The notes under the pieces: model-generated
Databases searched by the model: none
What the model was told of the DNA's origin: nothing
Seen by the model: the letters and a program-made list of their open reading frames with translations, nothing else
Source of the DNA: Candidatus Woesearchaeota archaeon
Lineage (GTDB): Archaea > Nanobdellota > Nanobdellia > Pacearchaeales > GW2011-AR1
Length of the DNA stretch: 64,000 nucleotides
Reading direction: 5' to 3'
Assembly: GCA_964612685.1 (NCBI GenBank)
Contig: CAZTCF010000003.1
Coordinates: 3,685-67,684 of the forward strand
In this document: piece after piece, positions 1-51,160 of the stretch
Position numbering within the stretch: the first letter of the stretch is position 1
How the letters are laid out: every line of letters begins with the position of its first letter
Program-made: the position numbers and the translations under genes

Positions 1-49
1 GAATGGTTTGTTCGCTAGAACTTTAACCAGGCTGAGCTACGGAGCCATA
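1..49 (-). repeat. 49-nt direct repeat, copy A; the minus strand carries a tRNA-like 5' end (acceptor 5' strand plus D-arm 5' half); runs off the window edge
   Basis: Identical 49/49 to 72..120. The minus strand reads TAT-GGCTCCG-TA-GCTC-AGCCTGGTTA-AAGTTCTAGCGAACAAACCATTC. No D-stem 3' strand, anticodon arm or T-arm is visible inside the window. Confidence 0.6.
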
Positions 50-71
50 TCAGTGTTTGGCGAAGTAATCA

Positions 72-120
72 GAATGGTTTGTTCGCTAGAACTTTAACCA
101 GGCTGAGCTACGGAGCCATA
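72..120 (-). repeat. 49-nt direct repeat, copy B; a tRNA-like 5' fragment that cannot be a complete tRNA, because copy A starts 22 nt downstream
   Basis: Identical to 1..49. The tRNA-like +1 G is at position 117. The 22-nt spacer (50..71) has no tRNA features. Confidence 0.6.
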
Positions 121-142
121 CTTCAGAAAAAGATACAATTAC

Positions 143-5445: not shown

Positions 5446-8400
5446 TCACGCTCCACACCCTCCAACCTTATCCCCGCAAGTTTTACATTCAAAACAATTA
5501 GGTCCTGATTGAATCATGACGTTACCACACCCAGAACAAGTCTTTCCCCTTGAATTATTCTTTCCATTACCATTGCCATTTGGTAAACTAAATGCCTCTC
5601 CCTCAACAAATCCCCCTGTTTCAGAATCCTTTAAAACATCATCTATATTCCATTCGTCAATGTCCCTTCTTCTATAAGTTCTAAATGCCCCATTTTTAGC
5701 TCCTCTTAATTCATTAAGATTTATTTTATCTATCAAAGCATGTTCAGCCATCTCTTTATCTCCAAGATATTCTAATCTTAAAACTTTGTAAGCAAAATCC
5801 AAAGGTGAACTTGCAGTTTTTATATATGGATGTCCTATAACTAATCCGTTTGGCTCGAATTGTTGTCCTCCCCATCCTTCGATAGCATCTTCAAGACTTA
5901 AACCTCTTTTCAATGCTTTCGAGGCAGAAATACCTGTGGTTGTAAGTATAGCTCCTAAAGTTGAACCTGCCTTATAACTCAAAAAGGTTATTTGTCCAGG
6001 ACGTCCATCATCATACTCGCTTGTTATAATATGGAAAGGTGTTCCTCCTATCTGAACCTCCCATTCAAAGGCTTTTCTTCTATGATCTAACTCTTCTTTC
6101 TCTCCTCTGTTCAATTTCTTATGACTTTTGCCTCCAAAATCAACAGCACTTATTGGTTTACTATTATTTCTGAAAACAGTTATTCCTTTAAGTCCCAATT
6201 CATACCCTTTAATGTAGGAATCATAAATATCCTTAACCGTAGCGTTCTCAGGGAGATTATTTGTTTTTGAAATTGCACCAGATATGAAAGGTTGAGCTGC
6301 AGCCATCATCCCAAGATGCCCGTCCATACTTATACTTCCCTCTGCCTTTGCGTTTCCAAATGCAGTATCAAAAATTTGAGCATGTTCTGGCTTTACATGG
6401 GGAGCATTTCTTATTGTATTGTACTTCCCCACAAATTTAGAAATATCGGCAATTTCACTTTCATTGTATTTTAAATTTTTCAAAGCAGTTTCAACATCCT
6501 TATTTGCAATTACAACATTCCCTCCTCCAGCCAAATTTTTTCTTATACTCAAAGACATTGCTGGCTCAATTCCAGTTGTACTGCAACCCATCAAGAAAGA
6601 TATGGTACCTGTTGGAGCAAGAACTGTCGCCTGTGCGTTACTAAATCCGTATCTTTCCCCATTCTCGAGAACATTTTCCCAGGACTTATAAGCAGCTTCT
6701 TTTAATTTTTCATCTCCAACCTCTTCCCACAATATATTATCAAGACTTTTCTTGTGTTTCTCCATAACTTCCAACATTGGCTTTTTATTGAATTCATAAT
6801 GTGTAAAAGTTCCCTTTGACTTTGCAATCTCTGTAGAGGTTTCATAAACTGCTCCAGTCATTAATGCGGTTAAAGCTCCAGCAACTGCTCTCCCCTTATC
6901 CGAATCATAAGGAATTCCTTTTCTCATTAACAAAGAACCCAAGTCAGCATACCCTGCCCCGATAGTTGCAAATTCCGGACTTACCATTGCAATATCTGCA
7001 ACAGGATAAGATGCAGCTTGATTTGCAATATTTTGTGCTATTGAAAAAATCTTGTAAGCCTTCTTGTATCCTTCCACATCAAAGCTTCCATCTTCTTTTA
7101 AAAAATGAGTAAGTCTCTGCGAAAATAAACTACAAGAGGTATCATTTAAAAAAGCATACTCTCCACATGGATTTGTAGAAGTTTGTTTTCCTGAATTTTT
7201 AGCAGTATGCATTTCTTGTATCTTTGAATCATATTGAACGGCTGGGTCCCCTATTCTCCAACTTCCAAAAGCAATTTCTTTCAACATCCTATCAGCAGAA
7301 AATTTCTTGTTTGGTTTTCCATCGTTAACATTATATGTTTGTATATCTTCTCCATTTTTAACTGCTTCAAAGAAATCATCATCTAATCTTACAGAGATAT
7401 TTGTATTTTGAAGCGCAACAGTTGTGTATGCCTCTCCGTCCATTCCAGGACTAAATCCATTTTGCATCAAAGTTAATGCTTTCTTATCCTCATTTACTTT
7501 AGCTTTTATTACATCCATTGATTCTGGATGTTTATAATCAATACCTAAAAATCTTGCAGCCCTTCTAGTCTTACCACCGGATTTAATTGAACCTGCAACT
7601 TTATCATATATAACTTCAAAACTCACAACCCCCGAAGCTTTCCCCCCTCCAGATAAACTCTCTCCATTACTTCTTATTGAACTTCCATTATGTCCATTTC
7701 CTGAACCTGAACTAAAGATAGCAACCTCATCTGTTGTTTGCTGAGCAAGACTTTCTAAATCATCTCTTGGTCCTCTTATGAAACATGCATGTAACTGAGG
7801 GTGAATATACTCCCCGTTCAAAACCCTTTTTATTTCTCCTGTTTCAGGATCCTTAATGTAATTCATACCAGAACTTCCTTCTATTCCATAAGAATTAAAC
7901 AACCCTGCATTGAATTGTGTCGGCGAGTTAAATGCTCCTGCCCCATTTGCCTGTAAAAAATACAGTTCATTTCTGAAATTTTCTCTGTCTTCTTCAGTCT
8001 TAAAGTATCCTAATTTCCAACCCTCATCAGCAAAAAAATCCCCCACTCTTTTATTAAGATGTTTCAAAGAAAATTCATATTCAGAACCAATTTTTCCCTT
8101 AAGCTTTTCTTTCCATTCACTTTTTGTTGGTTTAAAGAAATATTTATCTGCAACAATTGAAGCATCAATATCATTCATCCATTCTGGAATTTCAGCATTT
8201 TTCATTTCAAATTTTGCTTTTCCTGTATTGAAATCTTCAATTCTTAAATGTCTTTCATTGTACTTTACAGAATCAAGGGGATTTTCATAATCTTTTGAAA
8301 AATATCTTTCAACTGTCAACCCTTCCTTCGGAGAGGTATCATGATAAATTCTCCCTACATCGAATCTATCTAAATACTGTTTTCCCTTAAGGTTATAAAC

Positions 8401-46760: not shown

Positions 46761-47696
46761 TTATTGAAAGGAAAACTTACTTGAAGGCCTACAAACTTCC
46801 TCCATCCCATCCTCATTAATAAAATAAACAATTGTTTGAACATTTTTAGGATTTTCAAGATGTTCTTCTAAAATTAAAACATATTTAGTAACCTGCTCAG
46901 AAGGTACAAGATTTCCCTCAACATCTATTACAAAGCTTGAAAATCCACTTTCATTTGTAAATACTAATTTTACCCCTCCCATCTGATCTTCCCCGGAACC
47001 CAATCTAGAAAGAACAACACTATAATTAGTTGTAACATTACTAACTTGATTTATATTTACAATTGTGCGTCCGCATTTTGTTTCTAAACTTGGAATACAT
47101 TTACTATTAAAACAAATATATCCCTCCCGAGTACACCCTCCAGCACATTGTCCTCCACATCCATCGTCTCCACACTCTGCCCCTGAAGGACAATAAATTA
47201 TACAGCTTGTAGTTCCAGAAGAACCAAAGATATACTCATCCCCCATATTACCTAAGTCTCCTTTTTTTATTTGAATATTCCCAATCTTTCTTTCCTTGAT
47301 TTCAAATTCAAAAACAGGACTTAAAGAAACTTTCTTCATCTTTGAAGCATTTGTAATATTTAATGAAAATAAAAATATCTTCGAACCCAATTCCTCTAAA
47401 GTTTCATTCACCAGAATTGTTTCAGTATGTTTCCCATCGTCCATAATAAATTTCATACCAATAAACTCCCCTTTTCCAATATTTCTCTTAACTAAAATAA
47501 GCAAAGAATTGTTATCCTTAATTTGAACCTGAGATAATTCAAGGTCTAAGGTATACTTTCCTAGAGTATTCTGCTCATTCTCATCTATAACTACTTCTTT
47601 TATAACAATGAAAGCAACTACAAGAAGTATAACAAACACAAAAATAAGTATTGCAGCAGTTTTTGAAAAACCTTTCTTACTCCCTCTTTTTAACAT
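46761..47696 (-). CDS. archaeal type IV pilin-like protein (class III signal peptide) with two copies of a shared beta-domain and a Cys-rich insert
   Basis: KKG/FSKTAAILIFVFVILLV N-terminus. C-terminal YSVVLSRLGSGEDQMGGVKLVFTNESG...VYFINEDG..EVC is paralogous to 50579..51160 and 55113..55589. Confidence 0.7.
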   Translation of the reverse strand: MLKRGSKKGFSKTAAILIFVFVILLVVAFIVIKEVVIDENEQNTLGKYTLDLELSQVQIKDNNSLLILVKRNIGKGEFIGMKFIMDDGKHTETILVNETLEELGSKIFLFSLNITNASKMKKVSLSPVFEFEIKERKIGNIQIKKGDLGNMGDEYIFGSSGTTSCIIYCPSGAECGDDGCGGQCAGGCTREGYICFNSKCIPSLETKCGRTIVNINQVSNVTTNYSVVLSRLGSGEDQMGGVKLVFTNESGFSSFVIDVEGNLVPSEQVTKYVLILEEHLENPKNVQTIVYFINEDGMEEVCRPSSKFSFQ

Positions 47697-47746
47697 CTAA
47701 AGATAAAGAGAGTGTATTTTAAAAAGATATTCAAAAGATTAAGAAG

Positions 47747-47818
47747 GGCGGATGGAGGGAATCGAACCCTCTCTATACGGACCACAACCGTACGTACTAC
47801 CGTTATACTACAACCGCC
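47747..47818 (-). tRNA. tRNA-His (anticodon GTG) with genome-encoded G-1
   Basis: Folded by hand. G-1 plus acceptor GCGGTTG/CATCCGC (one U-U mismatch at 5:68). D-arm GTAT-AACGGTA-GTAC. Anticodon stem TACGG/CCGTA with loop TTGTGGT. T-arm GAGGG-TTCGATT-CCCTC. Discriminator C. No encoded CCA. Confidence 0.9.
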
Positions 47819-47892
47819 AATACATATGTCGGTTCTAAACTTTGAACCAACCAATTTTACTAAATTAGAAGACTTTTAATTCTTTTTGTTTT
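47805..47892 (-). repeat. repeat unit copy 1: first 14 nt of tRNA-His (47805..47818), upstream leader, and 28-nt box TTAGAAGACTTTTAATTCTTTTTGTTTT (47865..47892)
   Basis: Compared by eye with copies 2 and 3. Read on the minus strand the box is AAAACAAAAAGAATTAAAAGTCTTCTAA, which is BRE/TATA-like and lies about 50-60 nt upstream of tRNA-His. Confidence 0.7.
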
Positions 47893-47944
47893 GCTAAATA
47901 AACATTAACGATATATTTTAAAATAAGTAGTTCTTTTAGTAATC

Positions 47945-48283
47945 ATGAAAAAGAGTACCATTGGTCTTATTATTATACTATCAATAGGGTTACTATTTTT
48001 CATTGTTTTATTTTTTTGGGGGAGTAGTTGTAAAACTATAACACAATGTTGGATAAATGAAAGTCAGTTAAATAATATAAGTTGTAAATCAGACAAAGAT
48101 TGTAAATGTGTTGGATGTTGGGAAAGTAATAGTTCCAATACGAAATATATTAGTGCAATTTGTAATTTAGAAACTTTTAAATGTGTTTCTCCAGAAGCAA
48201 ATTATGAAATAGCTAACCTTGTATGCACAAATGAAAGAACGTGTTCAAATGTAGGTGGCGAGTTTCATTCTGGGGGCTGTTAA
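47945..48283 (+). CDS. small anchored Cys-rich protein (cassette ORF 1), paralog of 36982..37257
   Basis: N-terminal TM, many Cys, CNLETFKCV and a C-terminal CSNVGGEFHSGGC-stop. Confidence 0.6.
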   Translation: MKKSTIGLIIILSIGLLFFIVLFFWGSSCKTITQCWINESQLNNISCKSDKDCKCVGCWESNSSNTKYISAICNLETFKCVSPEANYEIANLVCTNERTCSNVGGEFHSGGC

Positions 48284-48289
48284 TAGTTG

Positions 48290-48378
48290 TACTACAACCG
48301 CCATGAAAATGTGCAGTTGTGAAATTAATCACAGCACTAATTTAACCAATTTAGAAGACTTTTAATTCTTTTTGTTTT
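48290..48378 (-). repeat. repeat unit copy 2: 13 nt of the tRNA-His 5' end (48290..48302), a divergent spacer with a hairpin, and the 28-nt box (48351..48378)
   Basis: TACTACAACCGCC and TTAGAAGACTTTTAATTCTTTTTGTTTT are identical to copy 1. The spacer differs (GTGCAGTTGTGA-AATTAA-TCACAGCAC hairpin). Confidence 0.7.
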
Positions 48379-48441
48379 GTTCTTTTTAAGTTAATAGTTT
48401 CTTTTAGATAGATTTTTATTGTTCTTATATCTGGCTTAATT

Positions 48442-48753
48442 ATGGTAAAAAAATATCTCCCTCCACATCATATTCCTTTTAAAACAATCTTTGGTTATAA
48501 TACATTTAGGTTTCTCACTTTCCCAATTTTTATCTCATTATCCTTATTTATGGTTGTAGTATTTGGTCTTGATTGGCACATAGTAATATTTGTTTTATTT
48601 GCATTACTTTTTTTATGGAGAGATAGTGAAAAAGAATTTTTTATGTATAAAGAAAATTTATCAGAAGATATATTTGAATTTATTATTTGGATATTAATTC
48701 TAATTGTCACAATGATTATGTTTGGACCATTTTTATCAAACTTTGGTAGTTGA
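48442..48753 (+). CDS. small 3-TM membrane protein (cassette ORF 2)
   Basis: ORF with three hydrophobic segments. Its upstream region shares TAGTT(T)CTTTTAG with the region upstream of cassette ORF 1. Confidence 0.5.
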   Translation: MVKKYLPPHHIPFKTIFGYNTFRFLTFPIFISLSLFMVVVFGLDWHIVIFVLFALLFLWRDSEKEFFMYKENLSEDIFEFIIWILILIVTMIMFGPFLSNFGS

Positions 48754-48760
48754 TAGCATA

Positions 48761-48856
48761 ATACTACAACCGCCAATATATATGTCGGTTCACGAATATA
48801 CATTCATTAAACCAACTAAAATTACTAATTTAGAAGACTTTTAATTCTTTTTGTTT
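48761..48856 (-). repeat. repeat unit copy 3: 14 nt of the tRNA-His 5' end (48761..48774), a leader similar to copy 1, and the box (48830..48856) overlapping the last codons of the thioredoxin-like gene
   Basis: ATACTACAACCGCCAATA(T/C)ATATGTCGGTTC is shared with copy 1. The box encodes the C-terminal NKKN-stop of 48841..49080. Confidence 0.7.
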
Positions 48857-49080
48857 ATCAATTTCACAATTTCTTCTGGAGACAAAACCCTACCAAAAGA
48901 GATAACCTTTTCATCAATTACCAGGGCAGGAGTAGACATAACCCCATATTCAATGATCTTAGCCATGTCCGTAACTTTTTCTACATCTGCTTTTATCTTT
49001 AATTCTTCTAAAGCCTTTTTTGTATTTGCTTCAAGAACCTTACAATTTGGACATCCTGAGCCTAAAATTTTTATTTTCAT
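48841..49080 (-). CDS. thioredoxin-fold 'redox-active disulfide protein 2'-like protein
   Basis: 79 aa. MKIKILGSGCPNCK (CxxC at the N-terminus of helix 1). Confidence 0.85.
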   Translation of the reverse strand: MKIKILGSGCPNCKVLEANTKKALEELKIKADVEKVTDMAKIIEYGVMSTPALVIDEKVISFGRVLSPEEIVKLINKKN

Positions 49081-49298
49081 TATTTTTTACTCCTTAATCC
49101 AATAATTGATACAATTAATCCAGCAAGGAAAACTACAAAACCGTAAACACATGAAGGAAGGGTAAATATCTTTGTACTACATGAACCTCCCAAAGCACAA
49201 ACTTGCTGAAAAATTTCAGTATAACTTAAATAACCAGAAAATAAAACTCCTGCAAGTGAAATATAAAAGAGTGTCTTTAATGCTGTTTGTTTTTTCAT
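49080..49298 (-). CDS. small 2-TM Cys-containing membrane protein resembling the N-terminal half of VKOR-family proteins
   Basis: LAGVLFSGYLSYTEIFQQVCALGGSCSTKIFTLPSCVYG. The ATG at 49298 is preceded by AAGGAGGT. Confidence 0.55.
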   Translation of the reverse strand: MKKQTALKTLFYISLAGVLFSGYLSYTEIFQQVCALGGSCSTKIFTLPSCVYGFVVFLAGLIVSIIGLRSKK

Positions 49299-49348
49299 TT
49301 TTTGTACCTCCTTACATATTGATGAATACCAATATTTAAATCTCTCGT

Positions 49349-50059
49349 TTAAAACCAAATTTTTATCGTATAATAAACTCCAACAATTAAAAATACAAAT
49401 GCAATCACATACCTAGCATACTTTTCAAAAGTTTGAACTTTATTCATTACCCTTCCTATTTTAGCTACACTAAATGTTAAGATAAACGCAAAGATTATTA
49501 CTGGAAGTCCTGTTGCAAGAGAGAATACAGATGGAATTAGGAAAGCATCAGAATATTTCAACGCTAAAGGAATTAACATCCCAAAAAACAAGACAGCACT
49601 AAATGGACAGAAAGCAAAGGCAAATAAAACTCCCAATAAAAAACTTCCAAGATATCCTTTCTCTGAAAGTTTCTCCTTTATCTTATTCATTCTATTTCCA
49701 GATTTCAAGTGAGGAAATTTTATAACGTTCAACATTACTAATCCTATGAATATCAATAAAGGTCCTAATATCATTGTCCCATATTTTTGCAAGAACAGAG
49801 ATATGGCTTGAACGTTAACTCCAATATAAACAATTAATGCTGCAAGAAGAACATAAGTGAACATTCTTCCAAGAGTATAAACAAATCCGGTCAATAATGT
49901 TTTTTTACCATTATCTATCTTCTTGGAAATATAAGCAATAGCTGTTATATTTGTTGCTAAAGGACAAGGGCTTATTGCAGTCATTAATCCAATAAAAAAT
50001 GCAGCAATTAATGGAAAACTGCTTGTTGACATAGCTTCCATAAAAGACATTAAACTCAT
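49349..50059 (-). CDS. ccdA: CcdA/DsbD-type transmembrane thiol-disulfide electron transporter
   Basis: Six TM helices, with Cys in TM1 (AISPCPLATN) and TM4 (AFCPFSAV). Confidence 0.8.
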   Translation of the reverse strand: MSLMSFMEAMSTSSFPLIAAFFIGLMTAISPCPLATNITAIAYISKKIDNGKKTLLTGFVYTLGRMFTYVLLAALIVYIGVNVQAISLFLQKYGTMILGPLLIFIGLVMLNVIKFPHLKSGNRMNKIKEKLSEKGYLGSFLLGVLFAFAFCPFSAVLFFGMLIPLALKYSDAFLIPSVFSLATGLPVIIFAFILTFSVAKIGRVMNKVQTFEKYARYVIAFVFLIVGVYYTIKIWF

Positions 50060-50060
50060 A

Positions 50061-50522
50061 TTAACTTCCTGCTAACTTCCCTTCAATAACCCCTTTTAAA
50101 TAATTCATATAATCTTCTTTATTACTTATTTTATACCAAACATTTACGTTTTCTTCTTTAACGAAACTTCCATCTTTCCCATAAGTTCCAATTAACAATG
50201 AAGAACCCTTAGCTTCATATTTATCCACAAGTTCTTTGTTCTCAGACAAATCAATATTAATAGAAGCAAAAACGACTTTCCCTGATTTTAGTTGATCAGA
50301 AAAATAAGTATTGATTGTTTCTTCTGCATACGCCCCAACCGTCTTGCAAGAATAACACTGCTCAGTTGTATGGAAATGATAAATCTCTACTTTTTCAACC
50401 TCTCCAGAAATTTTAACCTTATCTCCAGAAGTATTCCCAGCAATGTATTTTGGAACCATTACTGCAATTACCAATAATACAGCCACACCCATTATAATAT
50501 AAGCATAATTATTCTTGTTCAT
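50061..50522 (-). CDS. membrane-anchored CxxC protein (thioredoxin-like, extracytoplasmic)
   Basis: The track start is a TTG. The ATG gives MNKNNYAYIIMGVAVLLVIAV (anchor), followed by HFHTTEQCYSCK. Confidence 0.6.
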   Translation of the reverse strand: MNKNNYAYIIMGVAVLLVIAVMVPKYIAGNTSGDKVKISGEVEKVEIYHFHTTEQCYSCKTVGAYAEETINTYFSDQLKSGKVVFASINIDLSENKELVDKYEAKGSSLLIGTYGKDGSFVKEENVNVWYKISNKEDYMNYLKGVIEGKLAGS

Positions 50523-50548
50523 TTGGTATCTTAGTCTAATGAATTTCA

Positions 50549-50571
50549 AAGACTTTTAATTCTTTTTGTTT
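50549..50571 (-). promoter_or_regulatory. fourth copy of the box (AAGACTTTTAATTCTTTTTGTTT); promoter-like element about 30-35 nt upstream of the ATG at 50522
   Basis: 23/23 identical to the core of the three boxes near tRNA-His. On the minus strand it reads AAACAAAAAGAATTAAAAGTCTT, similar to the AAAGATTTATAAA-type boxes upstream of other genes here. Confidence 0.5.
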
Positions 50572-50578
50572 CCTCAAT

Positions 50579-51160
50579 TTAATAAACTTCAAAACTGTTA
50601 GAATTATCGCAAAATTGTTTATTACCGTAATCGTCTAAAAAGTAAACAATAACATCAACTTTATTGGGATTTTCCAGCTTTTCCTCAGGGATACTAACCC
50701 GGATAGTTTCTTCAAAGATATCTCCTGGAACATCATAAATATGAACTCCCACATTATCCCTATTGGTAAAAACTAAACTAACCCCTCCAATAATTTCATT
50801 TCCATCATTAAATCCTCTTGAAAGAGTTACATCATATACCTCGGGCATTATGTTCACAATACCAATCACCCTAACTTCAGTATTAGCACACTTATAGCTC
50901 AAACTGGAGTATAAATCCCCCTCGTTAACAGTATTTCTAATTCCTATCCAAGCAATTCCTATGAGTATCATTAAGATAAAGAAAAGAAAGAAAATACTTC
51001 CAATAACAATAGAAACAATTGCCATCCACTCTCCTTTTTCATGAGTCTTCTTTATTTGAGAAAGAGAAATTATTCCTAAGATAAATCCAACGGGAAAAAA
51101 TAAAAATGTAAATACAAGTGCTAATATAGCTAAAGTATTGTATCCATTCTCCTCTCCCAT
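50579..51160 (-). CDS. membrane protein with the pilin-family C-terminal beta-domain
   Basis: The C-terminal YDVTLSRGFNDGNEIIGGVSLVFTNRDN...VIVYFLDDYGNKQFCDNSNSFEVY is paralogous to 55113..55589 and 46761..47696. The N-terminus has 3 TM helices rather than a class III signal peptide. Confidence 0.65.
   Translation of the reverse strand: MGEENGYNTLAILALVFTFLFFPVGFILGIISLSQIKKTHEKGEWMAIVSIVIGSIFFLFFILMILIGIAWIGIRNTVNEGDLYSSLSYKCANTEVRVIGIVNIMPEVYDVTLSRGFNDGNEIIGGVSLVFTNRDNVGVHIYDVPGDIFEETIRVSIPEEKLENPNKVDVIVYFLDDYGNKQFCDNSNSFEVY

Follow-up and report, generated by a model that had tools for sequence, protein, structure and literature searches.

Integration at the 5' part of a tRNA gene, tandem arrays of integrated elements and integrase-less remnants have all been documented, the first of these being rare (PMC6563490; PMC8371274). 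According to the part of the review PMC8371274 that summarises Cossu et al. 2017, the pTN3-like integrases of Thermococcales, which are of the Sulfolobus spindle-shaped virus (SSV) type, target the 5' half of tRNA genes, and the recombinant tRNA is driven by the integrase promoter. In that review the pTN3-like integrases are described as 'unique in archaea' on account of their 5'-half targeting (PMC8371274). Examples cited in both sources are the capture of genes in Sulfolobus (She et al. 2001), proviruses arranged in tandem (Krupovic & Bamford 2008; Krupovic et al. 2010) and plasmids of Methanococcales that have lost their integrase (PMC8371274; PMC6563490). The locus described here lies in a 64,000-nucleotide stretch of a Candidatus Woesearchaeota archaeon (contig CAZTCF010000003.1; the whole stretch is called the window), in which the start of the tRNA-His gene recurs in three direct repeat units separated by small gene cassettes. 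In this woesearchaeotal member of the DPANN archaea the 5' end of tRNA-His is very probably a hot spot of integration, formed by repeated site-specific insertion.

As in the pTN3-like systems, the 5' part of a tRNA gene is the chromosomal attachment site (attB); integration would rebuild a complete tRNA gene behind a promoter brought by the element and would leave the old promoter facing element DNA. The integrase gene (int) found in relatives of this locus is, in contrast, not split, and the elements are therefore not of the SSV or pTN3 type; the attachment site of the element (attP) lies ~65 nt upstream of int, unlike the 'suicidal' SSV arrangement with attP within the int ORF and a split into int(N) and int(C) on integration, only 14-17 nt of tRNA-His are targeted, and the hosts belong to the DPANN archaea. 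Since the review regards the pTN3-like group as unique, the woesearchaeotal site would be a second, independent archaeal case. The resemblance to archaeal tandem arrays lies in the re-use of the att site, the direct repeats of a tRNA segment that separate the inserts, the presence of inserts without an integrase and the reshuffling of modules by homologous recombination between tandem elements; the inserts here differ in being ~0.4 to 5 kb in size (a single gene or operon), in their exact boundaries and in the conserved putative promoter box that accompanies each. In Streptococcus, the cis-mobilisable elements (CIMEs) related to ICESt1 and ICESt3 are integrase-less, att-flanked segments that lie in tandem with, and can be mobilised by, an integrase-bearing element. 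They too represent integrase-less, att-flanked DNA accreted at a tRNA-linked att site, but they are bacterial, occupy the tRNA 3' end, involve no promoter replacement and were demonstrated experimentally, whereas mobilisation at the present locus is a hypothesis. Integration of a bacterial element at a tRNA 5' end is said to have been described by Zhao and Williams in 2002 (J Bacteriol 184:859, as cited in PMC6563490); that element reportedly shares the reversed orientation of the target and the need to supply the tRNA 5' part and a promoter, and differs in its bacterial host, its other integrase lineage and the lack of any described cassette array. The woesearchaeotal elements are best filed with the tRNA-targeting tyrosine-integrase elements, among which they are distinguished by their DPANN hosts, a 14-17-nt target at the 5' end of tRNA-His, a conserved, seemingly portable promoter box and tiny, exactly bounded, integrase-less cassettes.

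Each direct unit in the window is composed of segment A (the first 14 nt of tRNA-His), a variable spacer S and a 27-nt box B (Table 1). On the tRNA strand segment A reads GGCGGTTGTAGTAT, from G-1 to position 13, and its plus-strand 13-mer TACTACAACCGCC is found at 47806, 48290 and 48762, with unit 2 sharing 13 nt. Exactly 3 matches to this 13-mer were present in the 64 kb at ≤1 mismatch, and dinucleotide shuffles yielded 0; the 27-nt box, TTAGAAGACTTTTAATTCTTTTTGTTT, has perfect copies at 47865, 48351 and 48830, and its count in dinucleotide shuffles was also 0. The spacers S1, S2 and S3 are 46, 48 and 55 nt long. S1 and S3 have AATA(C/T)ATATGTCGGTTC in common, and S2 is unlike them and contains a hairpin. 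The distance from unit to unit is 484-486 and 472-479 nt. The complete tRNA continues from unit 1 only, and its acceptor stem was seen by direct reading of the sequence. This tRNA-His is the integration target (the attB side); unit 1 presumably serves as its promoter and leader at present, and unit 2 is a displaced copy of the att site and promoter. The same array arrangement was found in contigs from six other samples, at 98.9-100% identity.

A preliminary description of the window had already listed the three units of tRNA-His start, spacer and identical box, had noted that only the first reaches the full tRNA, and had recognised the related spacers of units 1 and 3 and the hairpin of unit 2; all of these points hold. 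The two cassettes it placed between the units, with an 11-Cys, signal-bearing open reading frame (ORF) and an ORF with three apparent transmembrane (TM) segments, were also recovered, as was the TAGTT(T)CTTTTAG motif common to both. Its statement that the third unit overlaps the last codons of a thioredoxin-like gene can be made precise: box B3 overlaps the final 5 codons of the 79-residue ArsE-like gene together with its stop codon. A fourth box (box 4, Table 1) had escaped notice.

The 21-nt core of the box was scanned against public genomes and metagenomes, which returned ~30 Woesearchaeota loci and a few unrelated chance matches; this search picked only box-bearing loci, and several of the contigs are short and of low coverage. 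All Woesearchaeota matches are at or beside a tRNA-His locus, with the box 25-70 nt upstream of tRNA-His. From the box towards the tRNA ~18 nt are conserved (TTCTAAATTAGTA.TTTT), which the search did not demand, and on the far side of the box conservation ends abruptly. Complete tRNA-His genes adjoin 25 of the units, and the other 15 are stubs, that is, extra tRNA fragments. Every stub without an adjacent integrase (12/12) ends at GGCGGTTGTAGTA(T), a sequence that occurs three times in the window and runs into the tRNA only in its copy at 47805-47818. Arrays like that of the window were found in L048 (three units), L017/L021, L019, L020/L024, L025/L047, L039, L040 and L051 (L numbers denote related loci). 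The S2 spacer type lies beside a full tRNA-His in L027 and L045 and beside a fragment in L051. Four checks proposed in the preliminary description thus gave positive results: the pair of 14-nt segment and box recurs as described, and empty sites (L030 against L024; L029 and L054 against L025 and L047), other contents between the same flanks (L082, L021/L017) and a tyrosine recombinase directly beside such fragments in relatives were all found.

The content between conserved flanks varies. In L082, a 1.8-kb contig that is ~91% identical to the window on both flanks, the order is tRNA-His, unit, cassette 2, unit and DUF4190 gene, without cassette 1 and without the ars-type operon. The limits of its three blocks of homology coincide with A1, B2...A3 and box 4, and the cassette 2 block of the window (48353-48775, consisting of B2, cargo and A3) is 92% identical to L082 771-1195. 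In CAYPLY010000003 (L021 and L017) the flanks are 83-88% identical to those of the window, and ~11.8 kb of unrelated DNA lies between them, with genes for a methyltransferase, a tyrosine integrase and a SUKH-domain cassette; this insert was compared from its end parts. The cassette 1 block (box, cargo and A; 47858-48299) has 90% DNA identity to L081 1438-1879, where it lies beside a different, intron-containing tRNA-His with an unrelated spacer.

Two pairs of empty and occupied sites were identified. At the empty site L030, tRNA-His is followed by one unit and then by the host gene; on that side L024 matches it at 99.97% identity across 3260 nt, and L024 has an extra unit and a 4-kb arsR-F-G...E-permease block inserted at A, with the distal unit of L024 matching the unit of the empty site. 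In the other pair (L029 and L054, empty; L025 and L047, occupied) both flanks are 99% identical and the insert is 4172 bp. It is bounded by GGCGGTTGTAGTATAAC, a 17-nt repeat (GGCGGTTGTAGTAT(AAC)), and carries int, a 418-residue ORF, a 114-residue ORF and its own box and spacer.

The ars-type operon of the window is inserted cargo. Box 4 bounds it here, and complete units flank its homologue, the arsR-F-G...E-permease block, in L020/L024; these observations identify the arsE/G/F-like genes as cargo. The block is not present at the empty site L030, nor is the operon present in L082 or L017. The preliminary description took the repeated segment for the original boundary of the thioredoxin-like gene with tRNA-His; this does not hold, because that gene belongs to the inserted operon. 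Box 4 itself lies ~24 nt upstream of the arsF-like ATG and directly downstream of the DUF4190 gene. The alignments of L017 and L082 to the window begin exactly at box 4, and the equivalent unit in both retains A, S and B, which suggests that box 4 is the remnant of the oldest (ancestral) unit beside the host flank.

A tyrosine recombinase (PF00589, 2.4e-11; PHROG integrase match) is encoded in the 4.2-kb insert and in the CAYPLY010000003 element, and integrases lie beside the att site in relatives (L017 556-1698, L025 5863-6960, L066-L071). The gene starts ~65 nt downstream of the displaced stub and is uninterrupted, encoding ~381 residues in L017 and 410 in L066-L071. The family comprises at least 86 clusters at E≤1e-10, some of them labelled Pacearchaeota or Nanoarchaeota. 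Residues R164, K193, R267, H268, H294 and Y303 are invariant across 80 integrase sequences, and this conservation of catalytic residues supports the view that the integrase would perform the recombination at these sites. A sequence comparison with the PDB gave no significant relative, and Xer models match only weakly (32.8 bits, against a XerC cut-off of 335 bits). In the Logan and JGI copies (L066-L071) the integrase is complete, with 410 residues; the copy in MTKZ01064819 (L025 ~6300-6400) has a run of N and a duplicated YEGGLRTGECRRLKWG segment, which is a scaffolding artefact.

Four elements whose integrases are 50-61% identical to that of L017 have one common attP design. The order is a 10-bp arm, 8-9 nt, the 14-nt tRNA segment (+AAC), ~15 nt, an inverted arm and int. 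The inverted arms are perfect and covary between elements (AAACCGACAC/GTGTCGGTTT, ATAACCGCAC/GTGCGGTTAT, TAACCGACAT/ATGTCGGTTA, AAACCGACAT/ATGTCGGTTT), and their distance is 37 bp in three elements and 39 bp in one. In L058-L061 and L063-L065 both inverted arms, the tRNA segment and int lie on one contig without a tRNA body, which suggests that L058-L065 are unintegrated forms. In the window an arm-like motif, GAACCGACAT, is found in S1, 7 nt upstream of G-1, and again in S3; arms of this type lie at the same distance in the attR and attP sites derived from elements, and S1 and S3 therefore appear to be element-derived. A candidate crossover core is CGGTT-GTAGTAT-AACCG, whose right half-site is poorly conserved among the attP sites and did not fix the crossover position. 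The other large proteins of the elements (418, 750 and 784 residues) belong to no family in Pfam or PHROGs. In IMG/VR neither the attP pattern nor the box had a match, and the 17-mer matched only six unrelated phage coding sequences without an integrase homologue; the elements are therefore not catalogued there as viruses.

The preferred account of these observations is that tyrosine-integrase elements carry attP just upstream of int, arranged on the tRNA strand as box B, spacer with the 10-bp arm, GGCGGTTGTAGTAT(AAC), ~15 nt, inverted arm and int, so that in the free element the box would lie upstream of int. Strand exchange would take place inside the 14-17 nt common to the element and the tRNA start. 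After integration the tRNA body would be joined to the 14 nt, spacer and box of the element, leaving the gene intact and expressed, and the old promoter, spacer and 14-nt stub would be displaced to the far side of the insert, facing int or cargo. Repeated rounds would stack inserts, with the newest nearest the tRNA. The window would then contain three layers between the host flanks, namely cassette 1, cassette 2 and the arsE/G/F-like operon, all of which lack an integrase and an int-side arm. The box 4 unit would be the oldest, followed by the ars-type operon with S3 and B3, by cassette 2 with S2 and B2, and last by cassette 1 with S1 and B1.

Cassettes 1 and 2 and the operon are integrase-less cargo with precise att boundaries. 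Such cassettes could have arisen by mobilisation in trans of arm-less circles, or by loss of int through recombination at a secondary site or from box to box. The preliminary description had seen here small integrase-less elements inserting repeatedly at the 5' part of tRNA-His; comparative genomics upholds the repeated site-specific insertion, and the part that did not carry over is insertion as autonomous integrase-less circles, as the two small cassettes could be trapped remnants. It had also found no integrase in the window, in agreement with tblastn, phmmer (E≤10) and an 80-sequence family hidden Markov model (HMM), all of which found no member of this integrase family there, other recombinase families not having been scanned exhaustively. 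No window cassette contains an int-side arm.

The role of the box was considered from its composition and position. On the tRNA strand it reads AAACAAAAAG-AATTAAAA-GTC, and at the loci with a minimal spacer AATTAAAA ends 28 nt before G-1. A distance of 28 nt upstream is that of the TATA box in archaeal promoters. The tRNA-Trp of the window has a similar GAAAG-ATTAAAAAATAA 21 nt upstream. The distal stubs of L039 and L040 have retained another promoter, of the classic TATA type, and the tRNA-proximal unit has the box, which indicates that the box arrives with the insert. From these sequence features the box is likely to be a portable promoter, consisting of a B recognition element (BRE) and a TATA box, that is brought by the inserting DNA and drives tRNA-His anew after integration at its 5' end.

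Several observations weigh against this account. Modules common to different genomes span the box core, cargo and A and exclude the spacer; as a simple crossover in A would keep spacer and box together, extra events are needed, and the spacers must have been exchanged separately from the cargo. Such a swap would probably involve a later integration followed by deletion between identical boxes, which would also remove integrases. The window has neither an integrase nor an int-side arm, and nothing in it demonstrates present-day mobility of its three cassettes. L019, L039, L040 and L058-L065 have a diverged box or another promoter, and the apparent universality of the box is inflated because the 21-mer search selected box-bearing loci only. 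The members of the L030/L024 pair also differ in the DNA past the tRNA 3' end, and contig ends at unit edges come from low-coverage assemblies. The promoter activity of the box and the point of crossover are both deduced from sequence comparison.

It was also considered whether the cassettes form an active integron-like platform, in which circles of box, cargo and 14-nt segment are captured, excised and reshuffled at tRNA-His by an integrase supplied in trans. This is a tentative possibility, as is the corollary that such a platform evolved independently from a lambda-type tRNA integrase, with circles of ~480 bp at the smallest and cassettes that gain a tRNA-type promoter. It is favoured by the precise cassette boundaries of 12 fragments and by the recurrence of cassettes in other genomes or array positions (the window and L081 for cassette 1, the window and L082 for cassette 2, L017 and L019 for the SUKH cassette). 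In addition, a displaced box lies directly upstream of many cassette genes in other arrays, a GGAGG ribosome-binding motif accompanies some of these genes, and contigs break at unit edges in four samples. However, the cassettes lack the int-side arm that is present in all four attP sites, the displaced promoters run antisense to the two small ORFs of the window, neither circular cassettes nor their junctions were observed, an attC-like fold spanning a unit is not predicted, and insertions or deletions of neighbouring cassettes can account for the positional differences. Integrons proper have been reported in Archaea (PMC9668308), and the likeness lies in small accessory-gene cassettes between recombination-site repeats whose ends are conserved and whose centre varies. 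The site here is instead the 5' segment of a tRNA, and the attP that uses it is of the lambda type, flanked by arms. The window has no match to the present integrase family, IntI itself not having been searched for, and in place of an IntI/attI/cassette-promoter (Pc) platform the array ends at the tRNA gene and the DUF4190 gene. The attC sites of integrons are imperfect inverted repeats that form single-stranded hairpins by pairing of their conserved ends. When the three units were folded as DNA, on either strand, pairing between the tRNA fragment and the box was never predicted; the spacer arm and the fragment formed only a local stem of 5-8 bp, with z-scores of -0.3 to -2.4. Integron cassettes are mostly promoterless and co-oriented; the orientation here is mixed, cassettes 1 and 2 being on the plus strand with their own AT-rich upstream regions and the operon on the minus strand with box 4 upstream. 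An integron, which the preliminary description had named as an alternative, was rejected on these grounds (IntI/attI, attC fold, and cassettes with their own promoters in mixed orientation).

The other explanations fare less well. The box might be a common strong host promoter, with homologous recombination or gene conversion among its copies; box-only copies do precede ordinary genes (box 4 before the arsF-like gene, L025 4947 before a DUF6498 gene), the box resembles the BRE/TATA of tRNA-Trp, and spacers unlinked from cargo suggest box-to-box exchange. This is nevertheless unlikely, given that the Woesearchaeota matches to the 21-mer are confined to tRNA-His, that homologous recombination does not explain sharp 14-nt tRNA stubs, and that the 4.2-kb int element bounded by the 17-nt repeat and the conserved attP arms would be left unexplained. 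An old local tandem duplication of the promoter-tRNA junction, in which selection kept the 14-nt and 27-nt parts without any mobility, would fit the direct copies with their similar spacing and the shared arrangement in close strains, but it is highly improbable: the cassette contents are mutually unrelated, the distal fragments of L039 and L040 have a different promoter, and relatives have an adjacent integrase. A static duplication is ruled out by the gains and losses seen in L082, CAYPLY010000003, L081 and the empty/occupied pairs, which differ in presence or content between the same flanks. Least credible, and extremely improbable, is that the 14-nt repeats are target-site duplications left by a casposase- or transposase-type insertion. 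Casposon duplications measure 14-15 bp, comparable with the 14-nt repeat, and some casposons insert at tRNA genes. Tandem casposon insertions are documented as well (PMC6563490). Direct reading revealed no terminal inverted repeats at the cassette ends, though, and the 14-17-nt segment already exists in the unintegrated attP beside a tyrosine integrase, and this candidate was rejected. The ORF lists and Pfam marks of the examined loci gave no sign of a Cas1 or transposase gene, no systematic search having been made. Repeated site-specific insertion by tyrosine-integrase elements thus remains the preferred explanation.

Mobile elements of DPANN archaea are almost undescribed, and a full-text literature search for Woesearchaeota, integrase and tRNA found no such elements in titles or abstracts. 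The locus and its relatives define a sizeable integrase family, an attP architecture, a chromosomal target and a cargo range that includes arsE/F/G-type, SUKH, toxin-antitoxin-like and radical-SAM genes. They would provide a second archaeal answer to integration at a tRNA 5' end, with a replacement promoter and, in this case, an unsplit integrase, and the arrays show very small genomes holding and swapping accessory genes at a single essential gene. In metagenome bins the 14-nt stubs are a simple marker for such islands, and awareness of them helps to avoid mis-annotation of tRNA fragments. Were the integron-like platform to prove correct, it would represent a compact means of accessory-gene exchange (e.g. 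of organoarsenical resistance) in genome-reduced DPANN archaea, with a tRNA-grade BRE/TATA promoter for each captured gene.

Table 1. Features of the tRNA-His locus (window positions) and of related loci (positions after the locus number)
Feature	Position	Strand	Source
tRNA-His(GTG), intact; body 47746/7-47817, genome-encoded G-1 at 47818	47746..47818	(-)	ARAGORN; Rfam RF00005, 59 bits
Unit 1, tRNA-proximal; A1 47805-47818, S1 47819-47864, B1 47865-47891	47805..47891	(-)	
Unit 2; A2 48290-48302 (13 nt), S2 48303-48350 (hairpin type), B2 48351-48377	48290..48377	(-)	
Unit 3; A3 48761-48774, S3 48775-48829, B3 48830-48856	48761..48856	(-)	
Box 4, most distal box copy; 2 mismatches, 21-nt core identical, no tRNA fragment	50545-50571	(-)	
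Cassette 1 (398 bp); ORF 47945-48283, 112 aa, 11 Cys, signal-peptide-like N-terminus	47892-48289	ORF (+)	
Cassette 2 (383 bp); ORF 48442-48753, 103 aa, three hydrophobic segments (3 TM by eye)	48378-48760	ORF (+)	
Inserted operon, four genes	48841..50522	(-)	NCBIfam; Pfam
ArsE/MTH895-type thioredoxin-like (Thioredoxin_3) gene, 79 aa	48841-49080	(-)	NCBIfam TIGR00412; Pfam
92-aa protein, weak VKOR-like match	49080-49358	(-)	
ArsG/DsbD-type permease	49349-50059	(-)	NCBIfam NF040495
ArsF-family protein	50061-50522	(-)	NCBIfam NF040494
Right-hand host flank, DUF4190 membrane protein gene with 'VYFLD' C-terminal domain	50579..51160	(-)	Pfam PF13828
Left-hand host flank, 311-aa Cys-rich secreted protein gene, downstream of tRNA-His	46761..47696	(-)	
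Flank paralogues with a common C-terminal domain	window 46761-47696, 50579-51160; L017 2427-3011, 6923-7399; L020 4240-4782, 6863-7333; L025 1068-1571		
Intron-containing tRNA-His	L024 50-175; L030 246-372; L039 4553-4675; L040; L055; L081 1265-1386		

The proteins of cassettes 1 and 2 have no Pfam match, and each cassette has its own AT-rich upstream region. The TAGTT(T)CTTTTAG motif occurs in the window only at 47928-47939 and 48395-48407 (0.11 expected); its distance to the box and to the start codons differs between the cassettes, and it is kept in the L081 and L082 copies. A cassette 1 homologue with 70% identity (L079/L080) has a copper-resistance cluster as its neighbour and neither box nor fragment nearby, and the cassette 1 gene therefore also occurs outside such arrays. 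By its predicted gene families the operon looks like organoarsenical-resistance cargo. A longer ars-type version in L020/L024 adds ArsR, ferredoxin, FmdE and a permease in the 4-kb insert.

Most cargo genes of the other arrays are co-oriented with tRNA-His and lie just downstream of a displaced box. L017 1837-2319 and L019 386-865 encode a common SUKH/SMI1 immunity-type protein (Pfam) with a GGAGG motif. By eye only, a 1.15-kb cassette at L039 4722-5860 appears to contain a winged-helix and nucleotidyltransferase pair, and a 5.2-kb block at L040 424-5647 appears to contain two radical-SAM genes, a GHMP-kinase-like gene and a methyltransferase gene.

The DUF4190 flank is syntenic in L017, L082 and L020/L030. 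The left flank is conserved at 83% identity in L021 and 92% in L082, and a look-up of its 311-residue protein for alternative arrangements returned the source contig as the sole match. Paralogous membrane or secreted proteins with a common C-terminal domain (GGVKLVFTN ... VYFLDE.GNE..C ... F), which lies outside any Pfam family, flank the hot spot in many genomes, and part of them have a pilin-like N-terminus (KKGLSTIVATLLII).

Contigs L004-L006 and L011, from four samples, end at unit edges (50625/50626, 48757 twice, 48351 and 48374), and two contigs of ERZ27257431 omit exactly the interior of cassette 2. The coinciding contig ends may reflect population heterogeneity or simply low coverage.

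In some Woesearchaeota lineages the tRNA-His gene contains an intron of ~45 nt after the anticodon, with the same integration site and box as in the intron-less genes; at these genes ARAGORN reports no tRNA under default settings.

The preliminary description had pointed to a repeat at the start of the window as a possible second example of a tRNA-fragment repeat. The repeat is real, but it is based on tRNA-Lys(UUU) and is different in kind: at window positions 1-121 (-) a 72-nt unit is repeated in tandem, in which the initial 24 nt of a tRNA-Lys(UUU) with an intron are joined to 48 unrelated nt. Either a scar from a similar event or simple duplication in tandem may account for it. The full tRNA-Lys lies just outside the window start and scores 57 bits with Rfam in L074 (1843-2100). 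The intergenic region measures 475 nt in L072 and L075 and 546 nt in L074 and L076, which indicates that the copy number of the 72-nt unit varies between samples.

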